From contig JBNGIO010006380.1 in NCBI GenBank assembly GCA_049999805.1, positions 174,769 to 208,785 on the forward strand: a DNA stretch of 34,017 nt, in the 5' to 3' direction. Shown here piece after piece: positions 1 to 28,985 of the stretch; positions within the stretch are counted from its first letter, which is position 1, and each line of letters starts with the position of its first letter. Both the position numbers and the translations under genes were made by a program. The DNA comes from Folioceros fuciformis (taxonomy: Eukaryota). The notes under the pieces were generated by a model. It was given only the letters and a program-made list of their open reading frames with translations. It was not told where the DNA came from and ran no database searches.

Positions 1-1115
1 CTTCCAGATTTGCTGGCTGTATCGGTAAGCCATATCTTAGGCAGCCCAGTCTGTCTTCCCTTGAATGTCTTGTTCAGGTCACCTGTGGGCCATGAAGCAA
101 ATGCGCAGCGCGTTTTACGCTTGGGCCACGGCATTGCCCATGGCCACGAGAAAGGCTTCCTGCAACAGAGTGGTATACCAGGAATGGAAGTGATTCCAGC
201 CGACGCTGCCCTTCTTCAGTGTCACCCGTTGAGACCATTTCATGACGGGGAGATCGTAGGATGGCGTTCAGATGGAGATGTGGGCTCACAGTTGAGATAT
301 GGGCGAGTTGTGGAGGATGTACGCGCATCTGCAGGGCAAGCTTTATACAGGCTCCAGGTTGAAACAAGACCAGGAGAGCTCCAGTTCGTCCTCTCCTCTA
401 ATGTGCTTTCATTCAAAGGGACTGCTTCAGCAGTTCAGGACTTCCCTAATCTTTACAACTCGCCCACCTCTGTGGCCCCCAACACTAAGCTTCCCAGTCG
501 ACCAGGAGATCTGGTCAGACCAAACGTGGATGTGGCGATGACAGCTGATCTACCGTTGCAGGTATTGCCCGTTTCTCTCTCGAGTCACAGTAACTCATCA
601 TTTGAAAAGTCGTTCGAAACTCGCTCACCTATCATTATCAACGGCAGGGTCCGATTGAGAACACACCATCAAGCGAAGTCCCTGCTGCCGAAGTAGTGCG
701 GGCTGTGAAGGACATGCTTTCTGCAGTTGGAATGCCAGTTGGTCTCCAGCAACTTACACTGTTGGAGAAAAATTTGAGTTTGCAGGAACAGTTGACCGCT
801 GCTGATACAGCTCTCTCTATAGAGCAGGTCTGTTTCTGCCTTTGATTTCTGTGCCAATTTGCTCATGCCTGTTTTGGGTCCCAAGAGTATCCCTCTTACG
901 TTGGTTATCTCTTGCAGGAGAGAGCAGATGCAGCTGTGAAGGACGCCGAAGCAGCAAAAGCTGCATGGCAATGCAGAGTGTGTCTGAGCGCAGAGGTGGA
1001 CACCACCGTTGTGCCTTGCGGGCATGTTCTATGTCAGAGGTGTGCTGCTGCTGTCAGTCGGTGTCCCTTCTGCCGCCACGCTGTAGCCAAAGCTCTCCGG
1101 CTGTACCGGCCTTGA
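1..1115 (+). CDS. Sacsin-like protein with C-terminal RING (C3HC4) finger, 3' end only. Exons <1-561, 648-827, 918-1115
   Basis: HPLRPFHDGEIVGWR...LRYGRVVEDVRASAGQALYRLQVET, then EVVRAVKDMLSAVG...LQEQL, then WQCRVCL...PCGHVLC..C...CPFCR...RLYRP*. This matches the C-terminus of plant sacsin-like proteins (At5g23110 type). GT-AG introns 562-647 and 828-917 keep the frame. Confidence 0.9.
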
Positions 1116-1551
1116 CGAAAGATTCTTTTTAGTCCAAGACTCCGAGCTACAGAACATATGTACATAGATACAGAATTGTAGAAGGGCCACTGCCAGAGTC
1201 TGTCTATGCATCGGGTTCCGTCTTGATTAATTTCGTCTTTTGCAGTCGAAATGACTGCCGTACTTTAGGTGGGCGGGTGTGTGAACCCGTCTAGCGAAAT
1301 ACAGTCTTTCCCAAAGTGAAATGTGAAAGACGTGCCTTGAAAGAAAGTTCGGTAGGGTGTTCTTCAAGCATCCACCAACAGCTCATTCGAACGCGGCACT
1401 GTTAAGGATAGGTGGACATCGGGATTTGCTCGGCGGAATCATCAAAGGACGCTCAACGCGCAAGGAACGCGCTTTGTCACTTTCCACCTCACGACTGAAT
1501 AAGAGTGTAAGGCATCGCGATAGAGCTGGTGTAGTCCGATTCCATGTTTCC

Positions 1552-3660
1552 ATGGCGCAACCGAGGGTGGTTGTTGGTTTAGATTTCGGGTCGACGTTCT
1601 CAGGATTTGCGTACTCTCATCTGGCTGATCCGCAGGAGATTCACACGTTCTACGAATGGCCGATGCAGGCGAAAGGAGGTGGAAAGCCCTACTGCAAGAC
1701 GCAGACGAGCCTGTACTATGTGCGCAATGCCGGAAAGAGCAGGGCAGGGTCCGATCCCGAGTTTGTGCTCAAGGATTGGGCATGGCCGGCGCAGGTGCAG
1801 TATCTGGAAGCTCTGCAGGCAGCGTCCAAGAATCGGAACCAGCAGGCGGGGGATTCGGGGACGGTTTCGGTCAAAGGCCGGCAAGCTGCGTCCGCCAGTG
1901 CGCGGGATGTCCAGCAGGAGGTAGGCTTTTTCGTAAGAAGGTTTAAGCTGCATTTGGCAAGTGCATCTGACAGGCCGGACTTCAAGGAGTTCTCCCCGAA
2001 TGAATCCTCCTTGACTGAGAAGAAGGTGAAGGGATTAAAGGAGGCGGAGATTGGGTTGAAGAAAATGTTTGGATTTCGATTCCTGAATCCGTTCGCCACT
2101 AGCTCCTCCAAGAAACCGACAGACGTGGAGACAGAAGAGGAGATCAAGCTTGGCCCAGCTCCAGCGGAATCTGCTCTGGTGAAGCGGACGCCGACTGCGA
2201 AGGAGAAGACTGGGAACGTTGTGTATGGCGAGCTTCCGCCTGGCGTGACTCTGGAAAGAGCCATAGCTGACTACCTTGCGAGCATTGCCGCTTTCATCGT
2301 ATCACACTTGCAGAGGACGTACGGCAAGCATCTCTCCAGGAGCGATGTGCAATGGTGTCTGACAGTGCCTGCCATTTGGGACGACAAGGCCAAGCAACAG
2401 ATGAGGTACTGTGCGCAGAGAGCTGGGCTGGTGACGGGGCCTTACTGTCCGCCCGAGATGGCCTACGCTGCCAGCACCTTCCCTCTGATTATAGTTCTGG
2501 AGTCGGAAGCGGCGTCCGTTTACTGCACCAAAAAGTCTAAGCAACTGAGTCTACAAATGGGAGCGCAGTTTCTGGTTGCTGATGTGGGAGGAGGGACGGT
2601 GGACATTGTGGTGCACGTGAAGGAGAGTGATGGGGCTGCTGGAACCAAGATCCGGGAGGTGAAGCAGAGCATGGGGGGACTGTGCGGAGGAACGTTCGTG
2701 GACAGGAATTTCATGGATTTCCTGTCCAGGAAGGTGAGCTGTTTTCCTGCATTTGTGCAGGAGAATCCTTTGGCAATTGCAGCATTGCTGCGGAAATGGG
2801 AGGACTTGAAGTGCAGCTTTGACGGGACCTTTACGTCCGAGTTGGACTTTGAGCTGCCCGTCAAGTTGGCCAAGGCCTGGCAGGTGCACGAAGCGATGGA
2901 GCTAGCTGGCACTGGAAAAACGCCCAGGGAGAGCTACGACGAGATCGAGATCACGAAGCAGGACATGCTCGACATTTTCGACCCTGTGGTGGATCAAATC
3001 CTGAGTCTGATCAAGGATCAAATGTCTCCCAGCATTCAGGTGCTGATGATGGTGGGAGGGTTTTCTGCATCGCCATACTTGATGAAGCGTGTGCACCAGG
3101 CCTTCTCTAAGCAGGTGAAGGAAATCCTGTGCCCTCCGGACCCGGGCAGCGCCATCTGCCAAGGTGCAGTCGTACTAGGGGTGTCGCCTGACATCATTAT
3201 GTCGAGGATTTCACGCAAAACATACGGCATCAACGAGTACAAGGACTTTGTGAAGAACAGGGATCCACCGAACTTGCTTGAAGTTGTGGATGGCAAACCA
3301 AAGTGTAAGGACGTCTTCTGCGTGTTTGTCAGGAAAGGGGAAGAGTTGAGGGTGAATCAGTGTGTGGAGAAAAACAGGTATCCTGTGTATTCAGGGCAGA
3401 AGGTAATAAATGTGAGACTGTACAGCACCGTTGATCCCAACCCACGGTACATCACTGACCCAGGAGTAAAATTGGAAGGATCTTTCATTCTCAACATCCC
3501 CGAGGACACCAACAAGCTTGACACTGGCCGTTGTGTTTCTATCTCGCTTTACTTTGGAAGGTCATGCATCCAAGTCAAGGCAAAGCGTCAAAATTTTGGG
3601 AATACGTCGGAAGTGGTCCAAGGACTTGACAGCATAGAGTTTGTCCATGAAGGAGTTTAA
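1552..3660 (+). CDS. Atypical Hsp70, HSPA12-like family, intronless, 702 aa from ATG 1552
   Basis: Actin-fold ATPase motifs VVGLDFGSTFSGFAY, WCLTVPAIWD, LESEAAS, VADVGGGTVD, CGGTFVD and MVGGFSASPYL, plus the HSPA12-type C-terminal SRISRKTYGI. No EEVD tail. First in-frame ATG is 1552 (the track starts at GTG 1357). Confidence 0.9.
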   Translation: MAQPRVVVGLDFGSTFSGFAYSHLADPQEIHTFYEWPMQAKGGGKPYCKTQTSLYYVRNAGKSRAGSDPEFVLKDWAWPAQVQYLEALQAASKNRNQQAGDSGTVSVKGRQAASASARDVQQEVGFFVRRFKLHLASASDRPDFKEFSPNESSLTEKKVKGLKEAEIGLKKMFGFRFLNPFATSSSKKPTDVETEEEIKLGPAPAESALVKRTPTAKEKTGNVVYGELPPGVTLERAIADYLASIAAFIVSHLQRTYGKHLSRSDVQWCLTVPAIWDDKAKQQMRYCAQRAGLVTGPYCPPEMAYAASTFPLIIVLESEAASVYCTKKSKQLSLQMGAQFLVADVGGGTVDIVVHVKESDGAAGTKIREVKQSMGGLCGGTFVDRNFMDFLSRKVSCFPAFVQENPLAIAALLRKWEDLKCSFDGTFTSELDFELPVKLAKAWQVHEAMELAGTGKTPRESYDEIEITKQDMLDIFDPVVDQILSLIKDQMSPSIQVLMMVGGFSASPYLMKRVHQAFSKQVKEILCPPDPGSAICQGAVVLGVSPDIIMSRISRKTYGINEYKDFVKNRDPPNLLEVVDGKPKCKDVFCVFVRKGEELRVNQCVEKNRYPVYSGQKVINVRLYSTVDPNPRYITDPGVKLEGSFILNIPEDTNKLDTGRCVSISLYFGRSCIQVKAKRQNFGNTSEVVQGLDSIEFVHEGV

Positions 3661-4724
3661 GGTTCAAAACGTGTATTCTCATCCAAGCATCGGACAACTT
3701 GGTATTCAGTTACAATCCATGTGTGAAGTGATACAAGAACCTTTTGCCAACACCGTCCCTACCCAATCCACGTTTGTGCTCCTTGTGTAAGGAGAAACCC
3801 CATCTCCAATGGTCCCGGGACTATGTGGGTTTCTCCAATGGTCCCTTATGTGAGTTGGGAAGAAGCCCCCCATCTCTAGTATTCTTGTGAGGTGTCAAGC
3901 CCCCCATCTCTATGATTGTGTGTTGGTGCTTGATTGTGTGCTGGTGCTTACATGAATGTAAATAATAATTGGTTAATAATTAAATATTTTAATGAATGAT
4001 ATTATTAATTATTAATACTTAATTAATATTGATTAATAATTATTAATTATTTAGGAAAGATTATTATCTAATATAAAGTCAATTAGATAGACACACAATT
4101 AGATGTGTGAATGTGGTTGCAGCAAGTCTTATGTAGCATGCATGTTGTCTACTGCAATTGTAAGTTTGTATTCTCTTACTTTCTAGGAATAGGCTCTCTC
4201 TTGAAGGAGCATTCTTTTGTTGGAAATCCGGTTGAGGTGTGCGTGTGCGCAGTGTGCAAGATCATGTGACTCAATCGAGGATTTGAGAAGCCAAGTTACA
4301 GCTCTAAGAAGTGTGGATGCAGGTGAAGGAGATTTTGTAGTGTCTAAAGGAAGCAAACACTTCACTCTTACAAGTTTACAGCTCCTAGGTAGGCTCGTTG
4401 AAAGAATACGAGTTGCTGAAAGGTTAGATTGAGCTTGGAAGTGTCAACTTTGCAAGCTTGTTGTAAGGCACAAGTTGCTGAAGATCTGAAGTGCTACAAC
4501 TTTTGAGGTTGCAAGGAAGAGCTTTAGCAAGTCGGAAGAAAGAGCAGCAACCTAATCGCCAAGAAGGAGCTGCCCTCAGCTCTGTCAAGGAGGTGGAGAG
4601 CGGGGCGCAGCTCCATTGTGAGGCACGGGCGCAGACCACATACAGCTGACAGCGAGAGCCCCTAGGGGGGCACGGGCGTGGGCGCAGCCCGATTGATTCT
4701 TATAGAAACATAAGACCCAAACCT

Positions 4725-6322
4725 ATGGTGCAGGTCGAGATTGCTCTTTGGCCCAACATGGACCACTAGAGGGTCCGGGCAGGTGAACTACTAGAGAACA
4801 TGGGTCTTGGGTTCATGGCAAAACACTGGAACTACGCAAACCCAGGCCTGGTGCAGGAGTGTGCACAACAGCTGTGGGCTAAGGCGCCGATGAGAGGAAT
4901 CAAGGACAAACCACAAGATTGGGACCTGGACCTGGTCAGAGTGGTGTATGGTGCAACGCGGAGGAAGCTGGAGGGATCATAATTGAATCCCTTCGGAAGC
5001 GCAGCACGGTGGCAACAGCAACAGCGCTATTCAAGGCGGGCATAGGGCGGGAGGCCAATGGTTGACTAACGCGCGAGATGGCGTCTGCTCAGTTCATGGG
5101 CCTAGCCAAATGGCTCCTCTGCTTCCTACAGCATAAGAAGTAGGACTATTTATCCGATCATTTGCTGCTGTTCTTGCATGTGGTGATCAAGGGAAGTAGG
5201 ATCGACTAGGGGAAGATTATTTTTGACAGACTGATCAAGGAGAGGCAAATTCTGACCTCCCTCACTCCTTGGCCATCCTTAATTTCCCCCTTCCTTGTCC
5301 ATCTATATTTCTATGTTAACTACTTACCAGAGTTGGATATTGTGGCTTCCTTGCACATGTGGAAACCTATTAAGGACATCAAGTGGAAGACAGATGAGCC
5401 CAAGGAAGAGGCAAAGACGGAGTCCAGCAACTAGGAATCTGGAGCAACTAGTAGCTCTAAAGAGGAGGTCACCGTCACCAAGAAATGGAAGGTTAGGAGA
5501 AGTAAGAAAACTCCTGCGAAGAGGAAGAAGGCGAATGCGCACATCACCAGGTCTAAATCAAACCTAGCACTGTAGGAGACGGCCAAGAAAACAGAGACCA
5601 AGCAAAAGGCCACCCCATCTGTAGAACCCAAGGAAGAGGCACCGTTGGCGGAAGAGAAGCCTGTTGATGTGGCTGCAAGAGTTTCGGAGAAATTAGGGCT
5701 AACCCCGATGGTGGACCTCTTTCCTAGATGGGAAGAGGTTTTAAAGAGCACCCCTCTGGTGGCGAATTTGCAGACAAAGGAGCTAGCTAGAGTGCGCACC
5801 TTGTTGGGGAAGGGAATATTAGACAGAGGGATGGCTACTGGCGGAACCCCTCAGCAGGTGGATTTACTGGGGTTAACAGCGGCCATGGTCCGGGCACAGG
5901 CGGACATGTTGGATCAGGCCACACTCGTGCTCACTTGGTTGAGCATGCAGGGACAACGAGACGAGGAGGCGTAGGCCAAGCTAGTTGAAGTGGAGGCAAG
6001 ACGGAAACAGCTGGAAGAAGCCCAACAGGCCCTTGACGAAGTAAGAGCTCTAGTACAGGAAGAATTGCACAAGGCACGGGAAGAAGTGCAATCCATGAAG
6101 AACCAACATGAACTGCTCCTGACCCAAGACAAGGAAGGGTGTGAAGCAAATCAGGAAATACAGCAGGAATTGCTGTGGGCACAGGAGCAAGAGGCAGCTG
6201 CAGTGGAGAAGGTCCAGAAGCTAGCGGATTGTTACAAACGGGAACGGGATAAGGCCCGGAGCCGAGTCAAGGGGAATTGTAAAGTCAAACAAAGCTGCAG
6301 GTCCTCGACTGAGGTAGCGTAA
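4725..6322 (+). pseudogene. Degraded ~530-codon ORF, probably a retrotransposon accessory ORF (helical N-terminal domain, Lys/Glu linker, coiled coil)
   Basis: The ATG 4725 frame runs to ~5000. After one frameshift a single frame reads NG*LTREM...RID*GKIIFDRL...ISPFLVHLY...KKTPAKRKK and runs into track ORFs 5645-5974 and 5990-6322, interrupted only by isolated stops. Confidence 0.6.
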
Positions 6323-6949
6323 GCCGCTACTAATACGAGAGAAAAAACAGTAGGATTTCCCGCTACTAGTAGAGGGAAATCCTATCGTGGTCAGGGAAGC
6401 AACGATAGTGAGGACCCGGAATGGATGCTTCTTCTATTGTGTCCAGGTATGGGGGTTAACCCCCTATTATTCGGAGGCAGTCCTGAAGGAGCTCACAAAG
6501 GAAGAGGTAAGAAAGAACCTGTGATGGTCCTTAGTAATAGGCGGCCAGTGGAGGAAGAGAGGACTTGAAGGCGGACTCCACCTATGCCTAGCCAGGAGAG
6601 GTCAGTCAGTAGTGGGAGTGAGGTGGAGATTTTATGGGAGGACATGCATGACCAGCAGCGAGGAAGGAGAGCTTGGGGATTTGGTGGCAGAGGAAGGAGG
6701 GCTAGAAGAACGGATAGGAGGAGGGCATGGCGCTAAGGTAGGCCACGAGTTATTGCATATCAAAAATAAAATTTAGATGAGATTTGGTAAAGATGCTATC
6801 TTTGACATGATGCCACCCGTAATTAAGGGCACCTTTCAAGTTGACTGTTCTTAAACCAGATTTTATGGCAGGTTGTGCCACCCGCTTTGAAAACTTTGTA
6901 CAAAGACGCCTGTTGGTGCCTTTCTAATCAGACAACTCCTTAGACAACT

Positions 6950-6978
6950 TCCCGGTTGAGATCCCCACGTTGTCAAGG
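6950..6978 (-). mobile_element. Candidate LTR 3' end (CCTTGACA) followed by a primer-binding-site-like 18-mer
   Basis: Minus strand reads CCTTGACA-acg-TGGGGATCTCAACCGGGA. Its complement ends in CCA, like a tRNA 3' end. I could not assign the tRNA. Confidence 0.35.
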
Positions 6979-8260
6979 TGGGTAGTGTGTGCGAAAAGCT
7001 CATAGGGGTAGTCGAGAGCGTTGCTCCGCAGCTGGTGGTGAGGGGGATGAATCCGCAAGTTTTGCTGGCACTAGAGAGGAGGTGAAGGATTGGTGTGGGG
7101 TGGGTTTGTAGCTTGCTTGTAATGCTGCTGGGCTGTCCAGAGGTTTCCCCTCCCTTATTCCCTGAACTACCCGCTGTGTTCTGAAATTTCGAGTGTGGAA
7201 GCGTGTGTGCGAAGACGAAGGTTGAAGGGGTGAGTGAAGAGAATGTGTGTGTGAGTAGGGTGAGTTGAGAAGAGAAGAAGAGAAGAAGAGAAGGAGAGAA
7301 GTGTGGCCAAGCACTGAACGCGATGCAAGGTGTGAGGCAGGTGATTGAGATTGAGAAGAACGAACTGAACTCACTGGAAAACTGTATGAAATTGCTAAGA
7401 GATTGGAGATGATTCCTAGAAAAAATCTGGGATATTCCTGGATGTTTGTGGAAGGCTGTTCAAGATTGGAGGAGATTGTGGAGGATTGCTGAAGATTGGT
7501 GGACATTGCGGGAGGATTGGAGACATATGGAACCAGGCCTGTGAGGAACGAGTGTGAGCCAGAGTTTTCGTGTGTGTTTGCATGTGTGGAGAGACTTGCA
7601 TGTGTGTGAGGAAGTGTGGCTGATCCACGGGGTTTTGTTCCCCAAGGATTGGCATCTGCATGTGTGCAGAGCATCCAATAAGACTAGATCTATGAGTCTG
7701 GAAGCCCCTGGGGTAGGAACTCGTGGTGGAAACCTGCAGTGGCGCTTGCACCGGAAAAATACTAGTTAGGGTTTTTGGGTGGGTCCCACCTCGGTCATGG
7801 GAACAACTACCAGTCGCAAAACTACTGACCGTGGTCATAGAGTAGGAACCGAAGTCGTAGAGTAGGGTCCGTGGTAGCTGGGCTAACTAGGGGTAGAGGA
7901 AGTTGAGCTGTTAGGTAGTAGACGTAGTAATGGGTCAGTCATAACTTAGGTAAGGGTCAGTAGCGATAGAAGTTAGAGTTCCTTGGCACAAATCATTCCC
8001 TTGGTAGCGAATCATACAAGTACAACGACATAGAGGGTGAATGTGGGCCTCACGGTGTCCCTGGACACAAGATTTCACTCCACATGATATAAGGCATATA
8101 GAATGAGAGCAAATCCAGGGATTGGGAGTGTCAATAAACTTGATCATTGCCGGGTGGGAATGTCAAGGCATGTCATTGGCAGGAGCAGGAAGGGGATTGT
8201 TGGATCCAAGGTCAGCACTATTCATTGAGTTGCGATTGAGCACTATTCTTTAAATTGCAG

Positions 8261-10939
8261 GAAGAGACACCTATAAGAATGCGGCGTCGTAAGCTCAGCA
8301 AGGCTGAGTGGGACGTTGTGGAAGAAAGGTGCTAGGAACTGCTCAAGGCAGGATTGATCAGGGCCTCAAATCTTGATTGGGCAGCGGCCACTATGTTGCC
8401 GTTAAAGAAGAATGAAGCTGGAGAATGGGTGGACCGATAAATGTGTGGAGATTATCGTTGCTTGAATGCTGTCACTAAATTGCATTGGTATCAAATGCCT
8501 ACTCTTGATGAAATCTTTGATGACATCATAGAGGAGGATCGGTGCAAGACCACATTTTGGGGACGAGATTCATTATATGAATGGCTAAGGATGTCATTTG
8601 GGCTAAAGAATTCTGTTGTGGTGTTGCAACAGAATGCTGATGGTGCATTGGCAGATGTGCCTGAGGCAAGGTGTTATGTGGATGACACATTATCTTCATC
8701 AAGACTTTTGAAGAGCAAATTCAAGTGCTGGAAAAAGTCTTTGCTATGTTGAAGGAATGGGGGCTTAAATGTCATCCTCGTAAGCTTACGTTTGCGTACA
8801 ACAAGGTGTTGTACCTAGGACATGAGATTACTCTAGAGGGAATTTCACCGTACATGGCCAAAGTGTTAGTTATTATCAAAGGTACATACTTAACATGAGT
8901 TCAATTGTGAGGCCATTCACTTGTTAGTTATTATCAAAGTGCTAGCACAAGTTTTTGGGGATGGAGAAGAACACTCTATTGCTTATGCTAATCACAGTAC
9001 GAACGTAGCAAAGGCGAACTATTGTTCTTATGAAGGAGAGTGTCTCGCACTTGTGTGGGCAGTGATGCATTTTCGAGTCTATCTACATGGACGAAGATTC
9101 GAAGTCGTCACAAATCATCAACCATTGCATTGGTTGATGACAAACAATAAGTTGACAGGGAAACTTGCTAGGTGGGCTATGATCTTGCAGGAGTTTGACT
9201 GCACTATGACACATTGTGCAGGGAAGACACATTTAAATGCTAATGCACTATCCAGGAACCCATTGGAAAGTAGCATGTATCTTAATGAGGCGTGACATGA
9301 TTCGATCGTGACATTGCAGGTCATCATTGTTAGTCGCAACTTGGCTAAGCTTGCAACGTATGAACCAAAGGAGGAAGCCTACGTTATGAGGGCCAATTGT
9401 GTTCGAGATGCATGGGTAGATCAATAGTTAATGGATTACATTCGGACTGGCCAGATAGTTGAGGGGACTAGTCAACGGCCTAGGGATCAGCTGCAACATA
9501 GAGCAAAACGATACATGTGGGAAGATAGCAAGTTGTACGTGTTGCAGTTTAATGCTTAGCGTAAGGTGGTGCTAGCACCAACGGAGCGTGAGGCATTAGT
9601 TACGCAAGTGCATGAGCAACTTGGACATTTTGGTATCAATTGCACGTTGAGCATGTTGACGCCAAGATATTGTTGGGCAGGCATGCACAAGCAAGTGCAG
9701 GAGATTGTTGCCTTGTACGAATCATGTGATCAAATCAAGGCAAGATTCATGGCGAATGATGTGGTCTTTCATTCTCTACCTATAAGAGGGATCAAATCAA
9801 GGCAAGATTCATGGCGAATGATGTGGTCTTTCATTCTCTACCTATAAGAGGATTGTTCTACATGTGGGGAGTTGACTTGTTGCCGGAATTTCCAAGGACG
9901 TCGTGAGGAAATCGTCACATGATGTTGATGATTGAGTACTTCTCCAAATAGATTGAAGTTGGTGTCTTTCATGAGAAGACGTTGTACAACACTAGCTAGG
10001 CATTTTTGCAATGTGTGTTGTCAAGGTTTGGTGCATGTGCTGAAGTTGAGACGGATCAGGGAATAGAGTTTAGAGGGGAATTTCATCAACTTATGGATAA
10101 GGTACTCATTGATCATCGTCGCACAAGCAGGGATCATCCGCAAGCAGATGGTTGGCCTGAAAGGGGAGTGCAAACTGTCAAGCATGCCCTACGGAAGTAT
10201 TGCTTGCAAAATAGCACGAAAGATTGGGATGAAGTGGTGCCATACATGTTGCTGGGCTATCGGGTAAGCACTCAAGCCGCACTTGCCAACTTTTCTCTGT
10301 ATTTTCTATTGTTTGGGAGACATCCATAATTGCCTAATGTGCAGCAAGCTAATATGGAAAGACTAATATCATGGCAAGATGTGGATGGTTGCATGAGCGA
10401 GCTGCAAAAAGACGAGCAATGTTGTTTCATCATATAATGCTTATGGCAATGGAAAATAAGGCCATTGAAAATAAGGCCATTGCACAACATAGGGACAGAC
10501 TGCGCTATGCTCATACAAAAGAAGGAAGTTGGAAGCCCAAAGTGCATCGATTTAAACTTGGTGATTACGTATACTTGACTCAACAACCTTCAGATACACT
10601 TGATAGTAGTGTTGGGCGCACAATTCTGTGAGTGGTTGTTGTCAAGGACATTGGGTGGTGGAGCTGGAGGGATTTGACGGACGAAGGTGGCAAGATCATT
10701 TGAAGAACCTAGCTCCTTGACATTTGCTAGATCTGGATCCAAAGCTACGACCTAGCACTTGGATACCACCCAAGGACTTGGAATGCCGCATTTGTAGTCG
10801 CACTAATGAAGAAGATGCTATGCTCTTGTGCTACCGTTGCAATAAAGGGTATCACCTGTTTCGTCTACAGCCACCCTTGCAAGAAGTATCGTAAGAAGAT
10901 TGGTTTTGCCTAGACTGTGCGAAGTTGCCAAAGCCATGA
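8261..10939 (+). mobile_element. Ty3/Gypsy pol pseudogene: RT (~8261-8880), RNase H (~8939-9262), integrase (~9570-10330), C-terminal PHD finger (10784-10918)
   Basis: RT: MCGDYRCLN, KTTFW, MSFGLKN, YVDD, YLGH. RNase H: IAYA..YEGECLALVWAVMHFRVYLHGRRF..KLARWAMILQEFD..NANALSR. Integrase: HEQLGHFG..YESC, WGVDL, TDQGIEF, HPQADGWPER. Domain order RT-RH-INT is Gypsy. Many stops and frameshifts. Confidence 0.95.
9728..9851 (+). repeat. Perfect 62-bp tandem duplication in integrase
   Basis: gatcaaatcaagg...cctataagagg occurs at 9728-9789 and again at 9790-9851. Confidence 0.95.
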
Positions 10940-11081: not shown

Positions 11082-11520
11082 GGGGGGATAGAGCTGCAGC
11101 ACCATCATGCTGTGTTTAATGGGTGTGTAATGTGGTGTGGCGTGAGTATTGTTAACTAATGAACCATGCATGAGTGTGATGTTTAGGGGCAGAGCACAAC
11201 CGCTGTGGAGCATGATTGTATACTGTCGCTTAAATGCATGCAAATAGTAATTAGTTAATAATTAAGTGATGGTTATGAATGACATTAGTGATAATTAATA
11301 ACTATTTAGTGAAGATGATTAGAGCTGTAGCATCATGACGCAGTGTTTAATGTGGTGTGGTATAAGTATTGTGAACTAAAGAACCATGCATGAGTGTGAG
11401 GTGTGGTATAAGTATTGTGAACTAAAGAACCATNNNNNNNNNNTGCATGAGTGTGAGGTGTGGTATAAGTATTGTGAACTAAAGAACCATACATGAGTGT
11501 GATGTTTAGCGGCACTGCAC
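11082..11520 (+). repeat. Candidate polypurine tract and start of a 3' LTR, with a diverged ~230-bp-period repeat and a 46-bp tandem unit spanning the N gap
   Basis: GGGGGGATAGAG (11082-11093) is followed by TGCAGC at 11095. 11089-11200 resembles 11320-11520. The unit gtgtggtataagtattgtgaactaaagaaccatgcatgagtgtgag starts at 11355, 11401 and 11458. 10 N at 11434-11443. Confidence 0.65.
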
Positions 11521-11984
11521 GATAGGGAAAAATCAAATCATTAGGGAGAGAGCAATTTCTATGATTTTTTTGCAAAGAAAATAATTCAAATTTGAACAAC
11601 TAGAAGCCACTATTAAGATTACAAAGGCGAGAAACAAGCACATAGGATGCGAAGCCAATCTCAAGTAGCATTCTAGATCTAGGGGCTAGAAGGCATAGCT
11701 TTCATCTTAGTTTATGTATCAACCTAGACAAAGACAGGCGTCAACTTTTCAAGTTGAGTAAGAAAGATGATCGCCATTAGAAGGTTAAATCAACCAACGC
11801 ACCAAGAGCTACAAACTTCCCTACCTTCCTTAAGGACACTTATGATTCCATAGCCCGCCATTCATGTGATTGTGATAAGCCTTTGCACAATCATCAATAG
11901 GTCTCGAAAAGTCCTTGACCATGGTCTCATAGGTCTTAAGAAGGATAAAACCATCTTTTATGTCTTTTATAGGAGGGTACTTAT

Positions 11985-15471: not shown

Positions 15472-18400
15472 ATGGGGTCCGCGGCTCTCTGCGAGCCCGC
15501 TTTTGTCAAGGAGGAGGCGCACAAGGAGTGCCCCCAGGGCGAGGCGGATGCCGGAGATGTGTCAGTATTGCACTTTTATGACGACGAGACTCAGCTTCGA
15601 ATTCTTGTCTGCGGGGTGGCCAGCCTGCTGGTGGGTAGCCTAGTGTGTTTCGCGACGCACTAAAACTATAGCTCTAGCTGGCCATGGCGTGTTGCTGCAT
15701 AGGGGGCGATTATTGACCTCGCCTGTAGGAGAGAGATGGATGGTGTGCCTTGTGCTCTCAGCTTCTTGTTTGCACTTCCATCTTGCCATACAGGTTGCCG
15801 GGTGCTGCTGGCATCTTTTCCAGCTTGTGCTGTCTGTCTCTAGTTTTAGTTTCTCTATCATCTCTCGTGTCAATCAGCACACTTGTGGTATGTGCCATGT
15901 CCTCTTCTGCTGACATTATTCCTCCACGGCAGGATGCCCAGAGGCTGAAGGATATTGAAGCTGGCTTGAGTTCTTTGATGACAATTGAGGTAGCCCGTTT
16001 TTCTTCCTCATCTGCTGTTCTTTTGGTTTGTCGTCCTTAGTCTTTGCACAAGTCGACTGGCACTGATTTCATTGCTAAACCAGAGTGCTACATCCATGGT
16101 TTCTTGCTTATAACCTGCTTCTGCATTTTATTTGTCTCATCTTCAGGTTAAAGCCATTCGACTTCTGAATCGTCTCAGGTGAGCAATTGCTGTCACGAGT
16201 ATTGGCGACTATCGCAGTTAGTTTTCCTTTCAGATCGTCACGTTTGAATGTGGTCTCCCTCTCGCAGTGCTCCTCCTCCCCCAAAGGCAGCTGCAGTTAT
16301 TGTTCGGGGCGTGGTTACAATGAGATGTGATGTGTGCACTACGAATGGTGCGAGGATACCTCTGCTCGTTTCTGGTGGAGGGCACACCTGTTTTGACGAC
16401 CAGGTGCGTAAAAGTCCTTCTCCTTGTAAGTTCTCTGGATATGATTTGAACGCAACAATGTGAAATACTGCCCAGTGGATTCTGACATTGGCTCTTTTTG
16501 CAGCTCCTGGAAGCAGCCATACGCAAGGAACTGGCTGCAAAGACTAAGGTAGTTCAGCTCGTGAAGTGCAAGGATGAAGGAAAAGCTGCTCCTATCACCT
16601 CTGGATTGCGAAGGTCGTTGTCTGTAGCGGCTGGTGCGCCTGTTGTGGAGCTTAGAATTATAACAACTGGATGGGCTGCACAGGTGAAACTGCCCGCCCT
16701 TTTATTTTTATTTTAATATTCATTTTTGGTATATCTATTCATTTACAAAACTGGCAGATTGATTACTCGAAGTGGCCATTGCAGATCCTGAGACAGCTTT
16801 CATCTGAGGTCTATTACAGAAAATTTGCTGAATTGGGGGTGGCTGGAATAGAGGGAGCACCGGTCGCTGCTTTTCAGAGAGCAGATGTCACACGGCTTGA
16901 AAAGCTTCTTAGGAAGCCTTACAGCTCTGAGGGATCAAGCCAACTTGAATCCAAGTATGTAGCAAGTATACCCTCGTGGCTTTCGCCACCAGAGCCAAGT
17001 ACAAAAAGGCGCAAATTGCTCCACCATCCCTGTCCATCAAATGGTGGGGTGAATGATGAAGATGCTTTGCTGCATGGAAATAAGGAAGATAGCAGCGGGA
17101 ACTGTGGATTCCGTGCGGGGAAAAATGGAGTTGTGGAAGGTTCCCGTCAGGGGATCCAAAAACCACAATTACTTGCAGCCATGAAGCCTGTGCCTCATTC
17201 AACGCGCCGAAAACTCATGCCATTTGCTGCAGCTGTGCTTGCTGGCGCTCAAACAGGGTGGTCTATGAAGCTGCCATTGGCAAATGGAGGTACCAGTAGG
17301 GCAAGGCCTAGCACTGGGGCTGGGCTGACGGCTATCAATATGAATGGGAGTACTCCTGCATCAGAAGGCCATCAACCAACGGGTGGACTGCCTGGTCCTT
17401 TCTTTCCAGCCTCTCTGGTGCCGCCACATAACTGTTCGCGGAAGCCCATGAATCAGTGCTCCGAGGTAAGAACCTGTGTGGGTCTGCATATGCTTCTCAT
17501 TGTACTTAAGCCTTTGGTTTAATATGCTAATTCCTTTGGGTTTTTTTATGGACCAGGAAGAATTCTTGCAGGACGTCATTCAGTTTCTTACCTCAAGAGG
17601 ACATTCGAAGCACGTGCCTCCTGGTGGTCCGGATAATTTCCCTGAGGCTGTCCTTAATGGAGCCAAGCTTGACTTATATAATCTGTATAAGGAAGTGAGT
17701 GCCAGCTTAATGATCCATCAGAACTCTTTACCTTCCTTGGCTGTCCCTTTGAGGTAGTAGGGTGGTTTCTCAACCACTCTTGACCGTATTGATGTTGTGC
17801 AGGTAGTGTCAAGGGGCGGTTTCCATGTTGGCAATGGTATCAACTGGAAGGGCCAGATTTTCTCGAAGATGCGTAACCATACCACCATCAACAAAATGAC
17901 AGTAAGAACATGCCTCCCCAGTACGGGTTTTGTAAGTTTGCCATTTATGCCATCTTGTGCTGACCATCTGGCACTCTGTTACCTGACATAGGGTGTGGGA
18001 AATACCTTAAAGAAACACTACGAGACTTACCTACTCGAGTATGAGTTTGCACACAGTGACGTGGATGGAGAGTGCTGTATCTTATGTCACAGGTAGTCCT
18101 GAACTTCAAGATTTGCATGTCAGAGGTGCTTATGTCAGATGTGCAGTCCTTGAGGGACTGTGTTCTGAAGTGTTTAGTGTGCCAAATCCCTTGCAGTGGT
18201 GCAGCAGGAGACTGGGTGAACTGTGGAGTCTGCGGGGAGTGGGCCCACTTAGGTTGTGACAAGCGAATTGGCCTTGCGGCATTCAAAGTAAGTTCTGCTG
18301 TGCATGGTGACTTCCCCTCATGGATGATCATATAGCTGGTCGGGGTACAGTAGACATCCAATGGCGTTTAGCTGCATATTGTTGTCTTCCGTCTTTGTGC

Positions 18401-21911: not shown

Positions 21912-22148
21912 GCCAAGAGATATGGAATTTCTTACGCAAACTTGCTATTCAGGCGAGCTAGAGAAAGCTCGAATCAGCTTAATCACCACCGAGGGTCAGG
22001 TGGTCCCGAATGCCGATCTGGCCAATTTTTTTTTTCCTACGGATGGTTGTTGAAGGTCTGATTGCGGATCAAGCGTGTTTGATATACGCAGAAGCTATGC
22101 CTTGCTAGTTTGGTTTCCCAGAAGTTCTTGCTTCAAAGATTCTGGCAT

Positions 22149-23987
22149 ATGGGGCGGCGTGACATGGAGGGGCAAGAGGAGGAGGGAGTGTTGCTATATT
22201 ATAAGTTTACCAGCATCCCGGACCGAGAAGCAGCGAAATCGTGGTTCTTGTCGCTCTGTACCAATCTGTGTCTAGTGGGACGCATCCGTGTAGCGCCTGA
22301 TGGAGTCAGCGTGACTGTTGGAGGGAAGATGGTGGCCTTGCAAGCTCACGTTGAGGCTGTTTCTGCCAACCCACGGTTTGAGGGCACTGATTTCAAGCTG
22401 GCATACTGCACAAATCCTGTGGATGAGGAGAAGGCTCGGCAATGTGGCTTCGATTCGCTATCAGTCCGTGTGGTGAAGGAGCTGGTGACCTTAGGCATGC
22501 TTTCCTCGAAACCCGAGATTTCTATCTCCCAGGCAGGAGAACACCTGTCTCCCGAACAGTTTCACAGGGTACTTAAAGACGCTGGAGAACGTTGTATGGC
22601 AACAGAGCCTACGACACCTTCCTCCGGAGTTGTGATGGTGGATGCCAGGAACATCTACGAGACAAGGATAGGAAAATTCTGCCCACCAACGGGAGTGCAG
22701 TGTTTGGATCCAGGTGTACGTCAGTACAGTGACTTGCCAAAGTGGATTGACAGGAACGAAGACAATCTGCGGAACAAGCGGATCCTCATGTACTGCACAG
22801 GTGGCGTGAGGTGTGAGATGGCATCCGCCTACATCCGTTGCAAGGGTGAAGGATTCCAGGACGTGTTGCAATTGTCGGGTGGCATTCAGAGGTACTTGGA
22901 GGCATTCCCACGTGGTGGGTTCTTCAAGGGGAAGAATTTTGTTTTCGACCATAGGATATCCGTCCCCAGTCTGGATAGTGGTGTCGTGGGCTCTTGCTTG
23001 CTGTGCAGTGTTTCGTTTGACGATTACTCTGCCAGGGTGCGGTGTTCCCTCTGTCGTATGCTGGTGCTTGTCTGCGATGACTGTCGCAAGGAGGGCAAAT
23101 CAGGGTCGGGGTATGTCTGTGAATTATGTCAGAGTCTTGACGGAGTTACAAAAGCTCTCGCAACAGCTGATGAAATGCCTGATGAGGCAGAGGTATCCGC
23201 TTTCACTGTTGCTGTCGGCTGCATAGCTCAATCCCCCAAGTCTTTGCGGAGCCAGAAACTGCGGATCCTGTGTCTGCACGGGTTTAGACAAAGTGCCTCC
23301 ACTTTCAAGGGCAGAACAGCAGCCTTTAGGAAGAAGCTGAAAGGGGTAGCAGATTTCGTCTTCATAGATGCACCACACGAGCTTCCCTACGTACGAGCAA
23401 TGGTGGAGAGATCTGAAGAAGCAGGAGCAAGCTTAGAGAATCTTCCGGTACAGGGAAGGAAGTATGCTTGGCTCGTCACGCCTGAAACCTTGCAAGCATC
23501 GAAGCATCTGGAGAGATGTTCAATGCTGGAGGGACCCTTCGACCCACTGCAGTACAAAACCCAAACTGCAGGGTGGGCAGAATCATGGCTCTCTCTGCAG
23601 AACGTGTTTGCGGAGCAGGGCCCCTTCGATGGAGTGCTGGGTTTCTCACAGGGTGCGGCAGTAGCTGCAGCCCTGTGTGCTGCTCGTCGCACAGATCCAC
23701 TGAAACTAGTGGATTTCAAATTTGTGATTTGTTGTTCAGGATTCCTATCCCCTGCCCCTGAGCACGTCCTGGCCATGCCATCCGGCGAGCTTGTGGACTG
23801 CCCGTCACTACACATTTACGGCGGAACCGTTGGCCATGACAGACAGATCACTCCTGCAGAAAGCCAGCAGTTGGTATCCATGTTCGAGCCAGGTTCTGCA
23901 GTCTCCATCAGACACGAATTCGGACACTTGATTCCTTCAAAGCGGAATTACATCCAGGCTTACCTACAATTCTTCAATAAATTCTAA
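22149..23987 (+). CDS. STR6: Rhodanese-like domain protein 6 type: TrhO/UPF0176-like rhodanese fused to an FSH1 serine hydrolase, intronless
   Basis: GVLLYYKF, GRIRVAPDG, DARNIYETRIGKF, MYCTGGVRCE, GKNFVFDHR, Cys-rich linker, then LRILCLHGFRQ, FDGVLGFSQGA, GHLIP. Start is ATG 22149 or 22164. Confidence 0.92.
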   Translation: MGRRDMEGQEEEGVLLYYKFTSIPDREAAKSWFLSLCTNLCLVGRIRVAPDGVSVTVGGKMVALQAHVEAVSANPRFEGTDFKLAYCTNPVDEEKARQCGFDSLSVRVVKELVTLGMLSSKPEISISQAGEHLSPEQFHRVLKDAGERCMATEPTTPSSGVVMVDARNIYETRIGKFCPPTGVQCLDPGVRQYSDLPKWIDRNEDNLRNKRILMYCTGGVRCEMASAYIRCKGEGFQDVLQLSGGIQRYLEAFPRGGFFKGKNFVFDHRISVPSLDSGVVGSCLLCSVSFDDYSARVRCSLCRMLVLVCDDCRKEGKSGSGYVCELCQSLDGVTKALATADEMPDEAEVSAFTVAVGCIAQSPKSLRSQKLRILCLHGFRQSASTFKGRTAAFRKKLKGVADFVFIDAPHELPYVRAMVERSEEAGASLENLPVQGRKYAWLVTPETLQASKHLERCSMLEGPFDPLQYKTQTAGWAESWLSLQNVFAEQGPFDGVLGFSQGAAVAAALCAARRTDPLKLVDFKFVICCSGFLSPAPEHVLAMPSGELVDCPSLHIYGGTVGHDRQITPAESQQLVSMFEPGSAVSIRHEFGHLIPSKRNYIQAYLQFFNKF

Positions 23988-28203: not shown

Positions 28204-28857
28204 TCAGGTTGACCTTGGCTTGGGGGCAACATACTCCTCGAAGCGGGTATGGCCGGTCTGCTTGCAATGTTCGGCCGCCCCGGTTTCCCCGACCACTCCC
28301 ATCTGGCAGATGCCACAGCGCAAAGTAAACTTGGCTGTGTCGGTAAACTTCCTAGCTCTGTGGCACTCGTCGATGAGCTTCTCCGCCAAGCTACCAGCGG
28401 CGCCGATGCCGCCATTCTTGTCCACGTTGAAGATGGTCTGGTCCACCTCGTCGGGGGCGTCGGGGAAGGGAGCCATGGCCAGGGCGTCGTAGTGCAGGCC
28501 GTCGTAGATGAGCATGACCCGCTCCTTGTACGCCTTTCCCTGCCCGTATACGTCACATCTCTTAGTCTGGATGTCGTAGGCGGCGATCTCCCGCTGGTAG
28601 TAGTCCGCCAGGATGGCCAGCTCGATGGCTCCTCCCCATTTGCTGGGCGTGAGGATCCAGCGGCAGTACTCCTTGTTATCCTTCCCCAGAATGGCATTTG
28701 AGTACGTCTCAGGATCGCTGCTGACAGCGGTAGCAATAACCTTCCTCAACTCCGCTGCCTTCTCCCTATTGTGCTCCATCACGTAGCCAACGGCGTTGAA
28801 GAGGCAGCTGTTGTCCGCCGGGATCACCCGCCTCACCACCACTCCCCCGTCCTCCAT
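28204..28857 (-). CDS. OTU2: OTU-domain deubiquitinase (OTU1/YOD1 type) with C-terminal C2H2 finger, intronless
   Basis: VVRRVIPADNSCLFNAVGY (catalytic Cys), WGGAIELAIL, LIYDGLHYDAL (His), LRCGIC..AAEHCKQTGH. Confidence 0.95.
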   Translation of the reverse strand: MEDGGVVVRRVIPADNSCLFNAVGYVMEHNREKAAELRKVIATAVSSDPETYSNAILGKDNKEYCRWILTPSKWGGAIELAILADYYQREIAAYDIQTKRCDVYGQGKAYKERVMLIYDGLHYDALAMAPFPDAPDEVDQTIFNVDKNGGIGAAGSLAEKLIDECHRARKFTDTAKFTLRCGICQMGVVGETGAAEHCKQTGHTRFEEYVAPKPRST

Positions 28858-28985
28858 CGCTGCTGAAAGGCCAGAAAAATGCAAACCTCGCACGCTAAAG
28901 CAACCCTAGGCCGAGGCGGATGTAATTCCGATGGGGGCTCCGACTTTATCTGCGCTACGTGCCGTCGGGAGGGAAGAGCGCCGAG

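Follow-up and report, generated by a model that had tools for sequence, protein, structure and literature searches.

Does the PHD finger that follows a Ty3/Gypsy integrase in the genome of Folioceros fuciformis belong to a retroelement lineage, and if so, what is that lineage and how does it copy itself? We analysed the 34,017-nt stretch of DNA that contains the finger (hereafter, the window) and compared it with other copies in the genome and with relatives in databases. By itself, fusion to a PHD is an addition already known from such elements, and the weight of the case lies in the element's ends. On balance, we favour an explanation in which a Ty3/Gypsy lineage found across green plants carries both a PHD finger and a DNMT3-like methyltransferase, has split-repeat ends and would integrate from end-joined DNA.

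The window copy

The element in the window belongs to a Ty3/Gypsy lineage and is an old copy that is now dead. It is non-canonical because of its DNMT3 domain and split-repeat ends, both of which were absent from an earlier, sequence-only reading of the locus. Its features are as follows.

3893..4369, +: repeat A1, left end, starting TGTC, locally scrambled (72–79% to full-length A copies of the genome, 78% to the truncated A2)
4155..4169, +: putative self-primer site within A, decayed, where the RNA is predicted to start
4370..4383, +: primer-binding site of a non-tRNA type, adjoining the end of A1
4693..8085, no strand: separate high-copy repeat outside the family, in place of Gag, protease and the DNMT N-terminus (93 matches)
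8086..8235, +: remnant of a DNMT3-like cytosine methyltransferase with catalytic motif IV (Cys codon 8161–8163)
8261..8880, +: reverse transcriptase remnant with deletions, a frameshift and stops (PF00078; tblastn)
8924..9292, +: RNase H remnant (PF17917, E = 7.8e-27)
9560..10383, +: zinc finger and DDE core of the integrase, interrupted by stops (PF17921, E = 2.4e-13; 56–62% to uninterrupted relatives)
10398..10783, +: integrase C-terminal region and linker, with a frameshift near 10650 and a stop at 10718
10784..10918, +: broken C4-H-C3 PHD finger, with Arg as its sixth ligand, a TAA within it and Tyr following Cys3
11082..11087, +: polypurine tract in the form of a G-run, immediately ahead of B1 and at the same place in sister copies and other families
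11088..11201, +: repeat B1
11198..11207, +: decayed B1/A2 junction AACC-GC-TGTG (in young copies, the palindrome GACA-GC-TGTC)
11204..11319, +: repeat A2, cut to about a quarter of its length
11320..11524, +: partial B copies including the right end (ending GATA), with a 10-N gap at 11434–11443

The PHD frame proposed at 10655–10939 (+) reads as described, and a profile search with both stops entered as X matched the full length of the PF00628 model (E = 8.3e-10, 39 bits, cut-off 24). The finger extends from Cys1 at 10784 to the end of Cys8 at 10918. Re-reading the frame bore out the reported CGT at ligand 6 (10862–10864), and the reported internal stop is a TAA inside the finger (10892–10894); two further stops are a TGA in the linker (10718–10720) and the terminal TGA (10937–10939). 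The residue after Cys3 (10832) is Tyr in the window copy and Asp in most relatives. A point missing from the earlier account is that the PHD frame differs from that of the integrase core. The Pol remnant changes frame several times, with the core in frame 1 to 10383, the C-terminal part in frame 3 (10398–10655) and the PHD in frame 2, and a 62-nt tandem duplication lies within the integrase region (9728–9851).

The methyltransferase remnant matched PF00145 (E = 1.2e-4, 22.1 bits, cut-off 22), with 56% to residues 1052–1102 of the uninterrupted relative L055 and 92% DNA identity to the copy L021. The repeat upstream of it had no tblastn match to the family's Gag or protease, and the genome search for it gave 620 first-look candidates and the 93 matches listed above. 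Repeat A had 58 matches elsewhere in the genome, partial ones included. No target duplication is left at the ends of the window copy, which lies 232 bp behind a host gene. The CpG observed/expected ratio was 0.57 in the window copy and 0.63–0.73 in host genes, which is no convincing separation, and 0.40–0.43 in young copies.

The PHD finger and DNMT3 domain across the lineage

In relatives, the lineage encodes Gag, protease, DNMT3, reverse transcriptase, RNase H, integrase and PHD in one frame. L055 has a single uninterrupted frame of 2,386 aa with Pfam protease, C5 methylase, RT, RNase H, integrase and PHD domains, and its integrase is of the D,D(35)E type (D2032, D2092, E2127). Its order of protease, RT, RNase H and integrase, repeated by the window remnants, supported the assignment to Ty3/Gypsy. 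As had been claimed, uninterrupted relatives have the finger joined to integrase within one frame, and it stands there rather than a chromodomain: PF00385 was absent from the two uninterrupted integrase–PHD frames scanned (L055 and L057) and from the precomputed domains listed for relatives.

The finger is a family trait, since 10 of the 11 other window-family copies extend over it, and it shares one frame with the integrase core in L003, L006 and L007. When the genome was searched with the integrase core alone, 23 of the 30 best loci had a PHD immediately behind integrase; two of the other seven met contig ends, and in five a deletion or insertion had disrupted the copy within the finger or shortly ahead of it, and none of the seven was seen to be an intact PHD-less variant. 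Among long database relatives, PHD was present in 118 of 120 and DNMT in 111 of 120, counts that are biased since the query contained the PHD. The idea of a host PHD fragment caught once by the window copy, to which the frame difference in the window could point, is ruled out by these other copies and by in-frame fingers in other families and taxa, leaving it a negligible probability.

An unrooted integrase tree set 37 PHD-clade integrases apart from four other Gypsy integrases of the genome (SH-aLRT 98); the latter (L064, L066, L069 and L072, other Gypsy types, most with frames cut by contig ends) served as tree outgroups only. The lineage had been taken for a land-plant one, which proved too narrow: its carriers are chlorophytes, Klebsormidium, a liverwort and the present host, with at least four families in the last. 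A tree built from one host gene put the host among the non-seed plants. Comparison between families showed saturation at the synonymous sites of the PHD (pS 0.86–0.97; pN 0.18–0.33). Young copies also exist in the genome, with two 99.8% identical and A1/A2 at 97–99%.

All 29 PDB matches of the element's methyltransferase were DNMT3A/B/C (best E = 1.2e-10), and motifs I, IV, VI and VIII are present in L055. The position of the DNMT varies between sub-lineages, and in named chlorophyte relatives it follows RNase H and precedes integrase rather than standing ahead of RT, while the PHD stays at the integrase C-terminus. Because young copies of the lineage occur in a land plant, an element-borne DNMT3 may add to bryophyte methylomes.

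The earlier suggestion that the finger senses the state of H3K4 is plausible, and its residues point to unmethylated K4. The closest solved PHDs are KDM5 PHD1, BAZ1B/2A/2B and UHRF1/2, and also ATXR5, ORC1b, AIRE and PHF21A. Across 159 fingers, the KDM5A residues that bind A1/R2 recurred in most: L309 in 140, D312 in 148 (with Glu in five more), P331 in 127 and G333 in 118. The acidic-wall positions held an acidic residue in 106 of 159, the acidic-wall position itself being acidic in 53, and the D315 equivalent was Asp in only 13. None of the 159 has Trp two residues before His, which we take to be the position of the methyl-K4 cage Trp. At family level, the finger combines an A1 pocket and an R2-binding Asp with the lack of a cage Trp, which are features of the KDM5-PHD1/BAZ2/UHRF1 class; the R2-binding Asp is lost in the window copy. 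Taken together, these residues are probably those of an unmethylated-H3K4 reader without a methyl-lysine cage.

Such a finger would probably dock the integrase on unmethylated H3 tails (A1/R2/K4me0), and this docking would, with slightly better than even probability, steer insertions away from H3K4me3 promoters. If so, plant retrotransposons would have a second way, beside chromodomains, of avoiding active promoters. In animal DNMT3, ADD domains have a K4me0-reading role. By analogy, and more tentatively, the element's DNMT3 would methylate the cDNA or new copy, and the PHD would fill the ADD-like role.

Less probable, although the strongest alternative here, is a PHD that acts after or apart from site choice, for example by bringing DNMT3 to the newly inserted copy, making the intasome more stable or binding a partner other than a histone. 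The co-occurrence of PHD and DNMT in almost all long relatives and the presence of PHDs in unrelated algal elements fit this reading, as does the fact that the authors on Gypsy-7a_cRei leave targeting versus selection open for its 2.6-fold intergenic excess (main account in PMC9940879). The place of the finger, however, is that of the targeting chromodomain of chromoviruses, and it is constant while the DNMT moves. A finger that recognises methylated H3K4 and attracts insertions to promoters is very improbable: cnidarian retrotransposons have fusions with PYGO-like PHDs that read K4me and the window copy lies close behind a host gene, but the cage Trp is missing throughout the fingers compared and the best structural relatives read unmodified tails.

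Split-repeat ends and a candidate copying route

The element does not end in two complete identical LTRs. Its layout is A1...PPT-B1|GACA-GC-TGTC|A2-B2, with A only at the left end and B both before and after A2. The outer ends are TGTC...GACA, of the TG...CA type, and are flanked by 4-bp target duplications, exact (ATCT) in the complete element G000:C6246 and in 13 of 15 family-2 and two of two family-1 A-B units. Collapses in the assembly may account for young solo A-B units. Elements with this layout may be overlooked, or given wrong bounds, by standard LTR finders.

In sister copies, a candidate self-primer site, located about 31 nt downstream of a CATAAAA box, can pair with the bases that follow A1. 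In three families the complementary stretch begins 25–34 nt behind a TATA-like box, and a fourth has it in a like place. Across these four families of differing sequence, five of eight tests reached 4 in 1000 shuffles or better; the three that failed were L084, L148 and the window, where the match is 6 nt (850 of 1000 shuffles). Priming by tRNA was rejected, as the bases after A1 have no TGG start in the families seen.

The A2/B2 joints hold leftover bases: primer-site bases in nine of 19 window-family and two of 20 family-2 joints, and one to three purine-tract G in eight of 12 family-1 joints. The palindromic B1/A2 joint keeps its spacing. No palindrome followed B2 at the right ends of 19 family-2, nine family-1 and about 17 window-family elements. 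Several copies end at B1 (L016, L019, L023, L056, L070 and L057), and L125 has a B|A-PBS 5' end. The palindrome pattern alone was uninformative (38 hits versus 26 in the control), and 11 of the 38 lay 0.8–1.1 kb behind integrase hits. Of four sequencing runs, X2 and X3 contained both joints; they are one sample, possibly the assembled one, and do not count as independent support.

These observations suggest the following route. RNA would start inside A1, and its first 10–18 bases would, very probably, pair just after A1 and prime the minus strand, as in Tf1. The plus strand would be primed at the G-run before B1, so that, by standard LTR logic, reverse transcription would duplicate B-A rather than A-B. 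Both cDNA ends may then be joined as a circle or dimer, creating the A2/B2 joint, a step to which we give about an even chance. With similar confidence, the DDE integrase would cut the internal palindrome, whereby TGTC and GACA become the element ends. End-joined '2-LTR circle' DNA is a by-product in retroviruses, and integrase action on the palindromic junction of retroviral circles is an old, disputed idea. The route, if true, would provide a natural case of integrase acting on an internal palindromic junction, and would answer how an integrase element can have the DIRS-like split repeats noted in 2018.

A rather unlikely rival is Ngaro/PAT-like copying with an integrase, in which RNA runs from A1 into B2 and template jumps to the internal B1/A2 junction restore the missing ends; the cDNA would be linear with ordinary TG...CA ends, no ends would be joined and the A2/B2 joint would be inherited. 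The A1-B1-A2-B2 order is that of tyrosine-recombinase elements, and only one permutation was seen: a circle model predicts a second one (A-B|A at the left end), and none of the B2 right ends counted above is followed by the palindrome. Moreover, identical joints were found in 17 of 20 young family-2 cases. This weighs against end joining, since inheritance would give the same. Against the rival, the purine tract before B1 and the primer site after A1 mark B-A as the reverse-transcribed repeat, and the primer-site and purine-tract leftovers in the joints are unexplained by inheritance. A hidden tyrosine recombinase was also rejected, as the Pol frame of L055 contains no such Pfam domain; three near-complete copies had no other sense frame of at least 170 aa.

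Comparison with known elements

A PHD in Gypsy Pol (Gypsy-7a) and a DNMT3 with A-B-A-B repeats (Klebsormidium) have been published separately. We found no description in the literature of a lineage uniting PHD, DNMT3 and split ends, or of the end mechanism, parts of which may stand in Craig's 2021 thesis, Repbase notes, work on REM1 or figure panels.

In Tf1-type self-priming, the primer site pairs with the RNA's own 5' end and no tRNA is used; the complementarity described above, significant in five of eight tests, would be compatible with priming of this kind. Bacterial DDE transposases of the IS3/IS911 type integrate from a circle with abutted ends and a 2–3 bp spacer; they too act on the junction of two ends, but belong to DNA transposons without reverse transcription, and the likeness is an analogy only. 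Ngaro, PAT, VIPER and SymbioDIRS-Dnmt3 share the A1-B1-A2-B2 order and solo A-B remnants, the SIRE of VIPER being a solo A2-B2 (as outlined in PMC6681497 and PMC5890265), whereas the present lineage has a DDE integrase, TG...CA ends and 4-bp duplications. Chromoviruses (REXdb Chlamyvir, Tcn1, Tekay, Reina, Galadriel, as well as CRM) likewise have a chromatin reader at the integrase C-terminus, and their Tcn1/Tf1 members self-prime (Neumann et al. 2019, PMC6317226). They differ in having a chromodomain instead of a PHD and in lacking split repeats and a DNMT; the text consulted of that paper gave no hits for PHD or methyltransferase.

In Chlamydomonas, REM1 (Perez-Alegre et al. 2005) is cited as a PHD-encoding retrotransposon in passages of PMC6673714 and PMC9940879. 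Gypsy-7a_cRei of C. reinhardtii, set beside our elements by its description, has a PHD in Gypsy Gag-Pol that was suggested to limit harmful insertions, and a single laboratory strain showed 86 new insertions of it (Craig et al. 2023, PMC9940879). Part of the repeat library in the supplement of that paper shows the G-run and palindrome layout at nine of 11 places, its entries reading G-run, short B, GACAGCTGTC, and the Gypsy-21_cRei entry, read by eye, encodes integrase–PHD. Both elements were curated there as ordinary LTR elements, and the figure legend names no DNMT.

There is also a close likeness with KnitGypsy-Dnmt3 of Klebsormidium nitens (de Mendoza et al. 2018, PMC5890265), which has Dnmt3 inside Gypsy Pol and repeats 'the same as a DIRS retrotransposon' (A-coding-B-A-B), the arrangement of the window family. 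Its main text and three supplements contain no hit for 'PHD', and the paper as available regards the Dnmt3 capture as confined to the K. nitens lineage and does not say how the repeats would work. The partial K. nitens proteins KFL_015960010 and KFL_005000010 have integrase and PHD, and a quick tree placed them in the same integrase clade. The present case differs in its land-plant host with four or more families, its palindromic junction, its candidate self-primer and its 4-bp duplications. We consider it an evenly balanced proposition that the Chlamydomonas PHD Gypsy elements and KnitGypsy-Dnmt3 are members of one green-plant-wide integrase lineage, in which the attachment site would have moved to the middle of the reverse-transcribed repeat, self-primed, end-joined DNA would be the normal substrate, and one polyprotein would carry a DNMT3 writer and an H3K4me0 reader.

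PHD finger and polyprotein

The sequence-only reading of 10655-10939 as a Ty3/Gypsy integrase ending in a PHD finger was confirmed by translation, and the Pfam PHD model matched over its whole length with stops set to X (E=8.3e-10, 39 bits versus a cut-off of 24). The finger of the window copy is broken, with Arg as sixth ligand, a TAA inside the finger and Tyr after the third Cys, and the linker before it carries one further stop. Several frame shifts in the Pol remnant leave the finger in a different frame from the integrase core. The window copy also has no Gag, protease or DNMT start, and an unrelated high-copy repeat occupies that place.

Features of the window, with one host gene from elsewhere in the genome
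1327-3660, + strand: Hsp70-like gene, open 777-aa frame (PF00012)
4693-8085: high-copy repeat (93 matches, 620 candidates)
8086-8235: DNMT3 piece with catalytic motif IV, window copy
10784-10918: PHD finger, window copy, broken
17470-18332, + strand: host gene with ARID and PHD pieces; its finger, unlike the element's, has Trp two residues before the His
22083-23987, + strand: putative rhodanese/hydrolase-like fusion, long uninterrupted host frame (by eye)
28204-28905, - strand: OTU deubiquitinase, long uninterrupted host frame
G000:C1919:3950-4891: LCIB-family gene

The element begins 232 bp past the stop of the Hsp70-like gene. Within the repeat lies a degraded frame, rich in coiled coil and at least about 300 aa long, two pieces of which gave no Pfam match above cut-off. 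The OTU gene marks the host as a non-seed plant: of its named matches, those from Calypogeia (75%), Physcomitrium (73%) and Selaginella (71%) are nearest. The genome encodes both EPF peptides and LCIB, which among land plants is known from hornworts, and this combination suggests a hornwort host.

When the genome (87 Mb, 7,240 contigs) was searched at the DNA level, 11 further substantial copies of the window family came up (83-88% identity), ten of which reach over the PHD. Three of them (L003, L006 and L007) hold the integrase core and PHD in one shared frame interrupted by stops only, and the sixth ligand is Cys in all seven other window-family fingers that align without gaps. The PHD also lies in frame with integrase at another locus, L055, whose single 2,386-aa frame encodes Gag-protease-C5 cytosine methylase-RT-RNase H-integrase-PHD (Gag zinc knuckle identified by eye). 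All 29 PDB matches of this methylase are DNMT3A/B/C, and motifs I, IV, VI and VIII were found; neither the methyltransferase nor the end structure figured in the sequence-only reading. The integrase core alone gave 151 genome matches, with a PHD directly behind integrase in 23 of the 30 best loci; of the other seven, two lie at a contig end and five have a deletion or insertion at that place. Between families, synonymous sites of the PHD are saturated (pS 0.86-0.97) and pN is 0.18-0.33 (22/34 loci, those aligned without gaps), and therefore the PHD has been kept under purifying selection.

Split-repeat ends and priming

The weight of the finding rests mainly on the end structure. No ordinary paired LTRs were found in the window family, in families 1 and 2 of the same genome or in further families, all of which have the order A1 - coding - G-run - B1 - A2 - B2. 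A begins TGTC and B finishes GACA; B1 and A2 meet in the palindrome GACA-GC-TGTC. G000:C6246, a complete element, has an exact ATCT duplication at its borders, and its A1 and A2 are 97% identical. Exact 4-bp duplications surround A-B units in 13/15 cases in family 2 and 2/2 in family 1; in the older window family, 2/10 are exact and 4/10 have one mismatch, and the window copy no longer has one. The family 2 flanks (L187-L204) have G before the duplication at 11/13 sites and C after it at 10/13, a weak symmetric target preference. A palindromic B-A junction with the primer site and leader behind it is present in a head-to-tail tandem (L068, G000:C2204) and at a left end retaining B (L125, G000:C4012).

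The bases directly after A1 show complementarity to a stretch within A over 18 nt in family 1 (matched by 0/1,000 shuffles), 14 nt in family 2 (1/1,000), 12 nt in a fourth family (2/1,000) and 10-11 nt in each of two copies of the window family (4 and 1 per 1,000). The test failed in L084 (111/1,000), the window copy (850/1,000) and L148 (457/1,000), whose A end was probably mis-set. In three families the complementary site starts 25-34 nt past a TATA-like box, at the expected RNA start. The two sites are arranged as in Tf1-type self-priming; REXdb predicts this mode of priming for Tcn1 elements as well (PMC6317226).

Given that the purine tract precedes B1 and the primer site follows A1, reverse transcription of the ordinary kind would give a linear cDNA B-A ... 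B-A with the palindrome inside each repeat, and could not template B2. Joining of both cDNA ends would create an A/B joint, and a cut at the left palindrome would then yield exactly A1 ... B1-A2-B2. The A2/B2 joints look like end-joining products. Among 19 window-family joints, eight are precise, two have G for A, four retain 1-3 primer-site bases and five retain at least 10, the last five being joined at a short shared word. Family 1 joints carry 1-3 purine-tract G in 8/12 cases; of 20 young family 2 joints, 17 are precise, two have the first primer-site base and one has the start of B twice. Spacing at the palindromic joint is constant, except for a 1-nt loss in L024. Against end joining, none of about 45 B2 right ends showed the mirror product, which would have A-B-A as its left end. 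Some copies do end at B1, and one left end (L125) has the form B-A-primer site, but both may also be explained by recombination or assembly collapse. We give the end-joining model an even chance; an Ngaro-like linear route in its place appears unlikely.

Predicted ligand of the finger

The top PDB matches of the finger are KDM5 PHD1, BAZ1B/2A/2B and UHRF1/2, with ATXR5, ORC1b, CHD4, AIRE and PHF21A also among the 60 listed. KDM5A PHD1 holds H3 A1 through a pocket of L309, P331 and W335 and the G333 carbonyl, binds R2 via D312 and prefers unmethylated K4 (bioRxiv 10.1101/715474). Among the 159 of 240 database proteins matching a strict C4-H-C3 pattern, which itself fixes the W335-equivalent Trp, the L309, D312, P331 and G333 positions are Leu in 140, Asp in 148, Pro in 127 and Gly in 118. 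The methyl-K4 cage Trp and an acidic wall are mutually exclusive (PMC5415848). An acid occupies one of two wall positions in 106/159 fingers; the D315 equivalent is not conserved. None of the 159 has Trp two residues before the His, which we take to be the cage position. Because the A1/R2 residues are kept and the cage Trp is missing, the finger is likely to be a reader of the unmethylated H3 tail. By its position and by analogy with chromoviruses, its use in insertion-site choice seems slightly favored.

Relatives and known systems

The best 120 long database relatives (P0001-P0120) have a PHD in 118 and a DNMT in 111, counts biased because the PHD was part of the query. They include Haematococcus, Tetrabaena and Chromochloris; shorter matches extend to a liverwort, Calypogeia fissa (72% identity), and to Klebsormidium nitens, two proteins of which have integrase and PHD. 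A quick, unrooted integrase tree of 41 rows picked by similarity separated 37 PHD-lineage rows from the remaining four, Gypsy integrases from the genome of the window (SH-aLRT 98); within the 37, a streptophyte-rich subclade (97) and a chlorophyte one (91) were resolved. The sequence-only interpretation is supported in part: the fusion of PHD and Gypsy integrase stands as a family trait, and the description as a land-plant lineage does not, since chlorophytes and Klebsormidium have relatives. In 96/120 long relatives, the named chlorophytes included, the DNMT follows RNase H and precedes integrase; in 10/120 it stands before RT, as in this genome. The two placements would reflect either a domain move or two captures. 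Judged by eye, many algal-type relatives (P0004, P0201, P0209 and others) have a tail of 100-400 aa beyond the PHD; it contains a small domain rich in beta structure and in some cases motifs resembling adenine methyltransferase, for which DAM-LTRs offer a comparison (bioRxiv 10.64898/2026.05.21.726589).

PHDs are already known in algal and cnidarian elements, including the Gypsy Gag-Pol of Chlamydomonas Gypsy-7a_cRei (PMC9940879). In Klebsormidium, Dnmt3 in a Gypsy Pol with DIRS-like repeats has been published; the available portion of that paper mentions neither a PHD nor DNMT-bearing chlorophyte Gypsy elements (PMC5890265). In the accessible part of the Chlamydomonas repeat library, an identical G-run and palindrome layout occurs at 9/11 motif matches, some entries being related. 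By eye, Gypsy-21_cRei has a curated LTR TGTC...GACA, an internal part beginning GC-TGTC and an integrase-PHD encoded on the other strand of the library entry. Our literature search, outside whose reach lay a thesis, Repbase notes and figures, found PHD, Dnmt3 and split ends nowhere joined as one lineage and no explanation of the ends. DIRS identity was rejected: the relatives' D,D(35)E integrase triad is intact, no recombinase frame was found in them and duplications are 4 bp. Chromovirus identity was rejected too. In the way it works, the element would be chromovirus-like at its integrase tail and Tf1-like in priming, and it most probably belongs with the KnitGypsy-Dnmt3 elements described from Klebsormidium.
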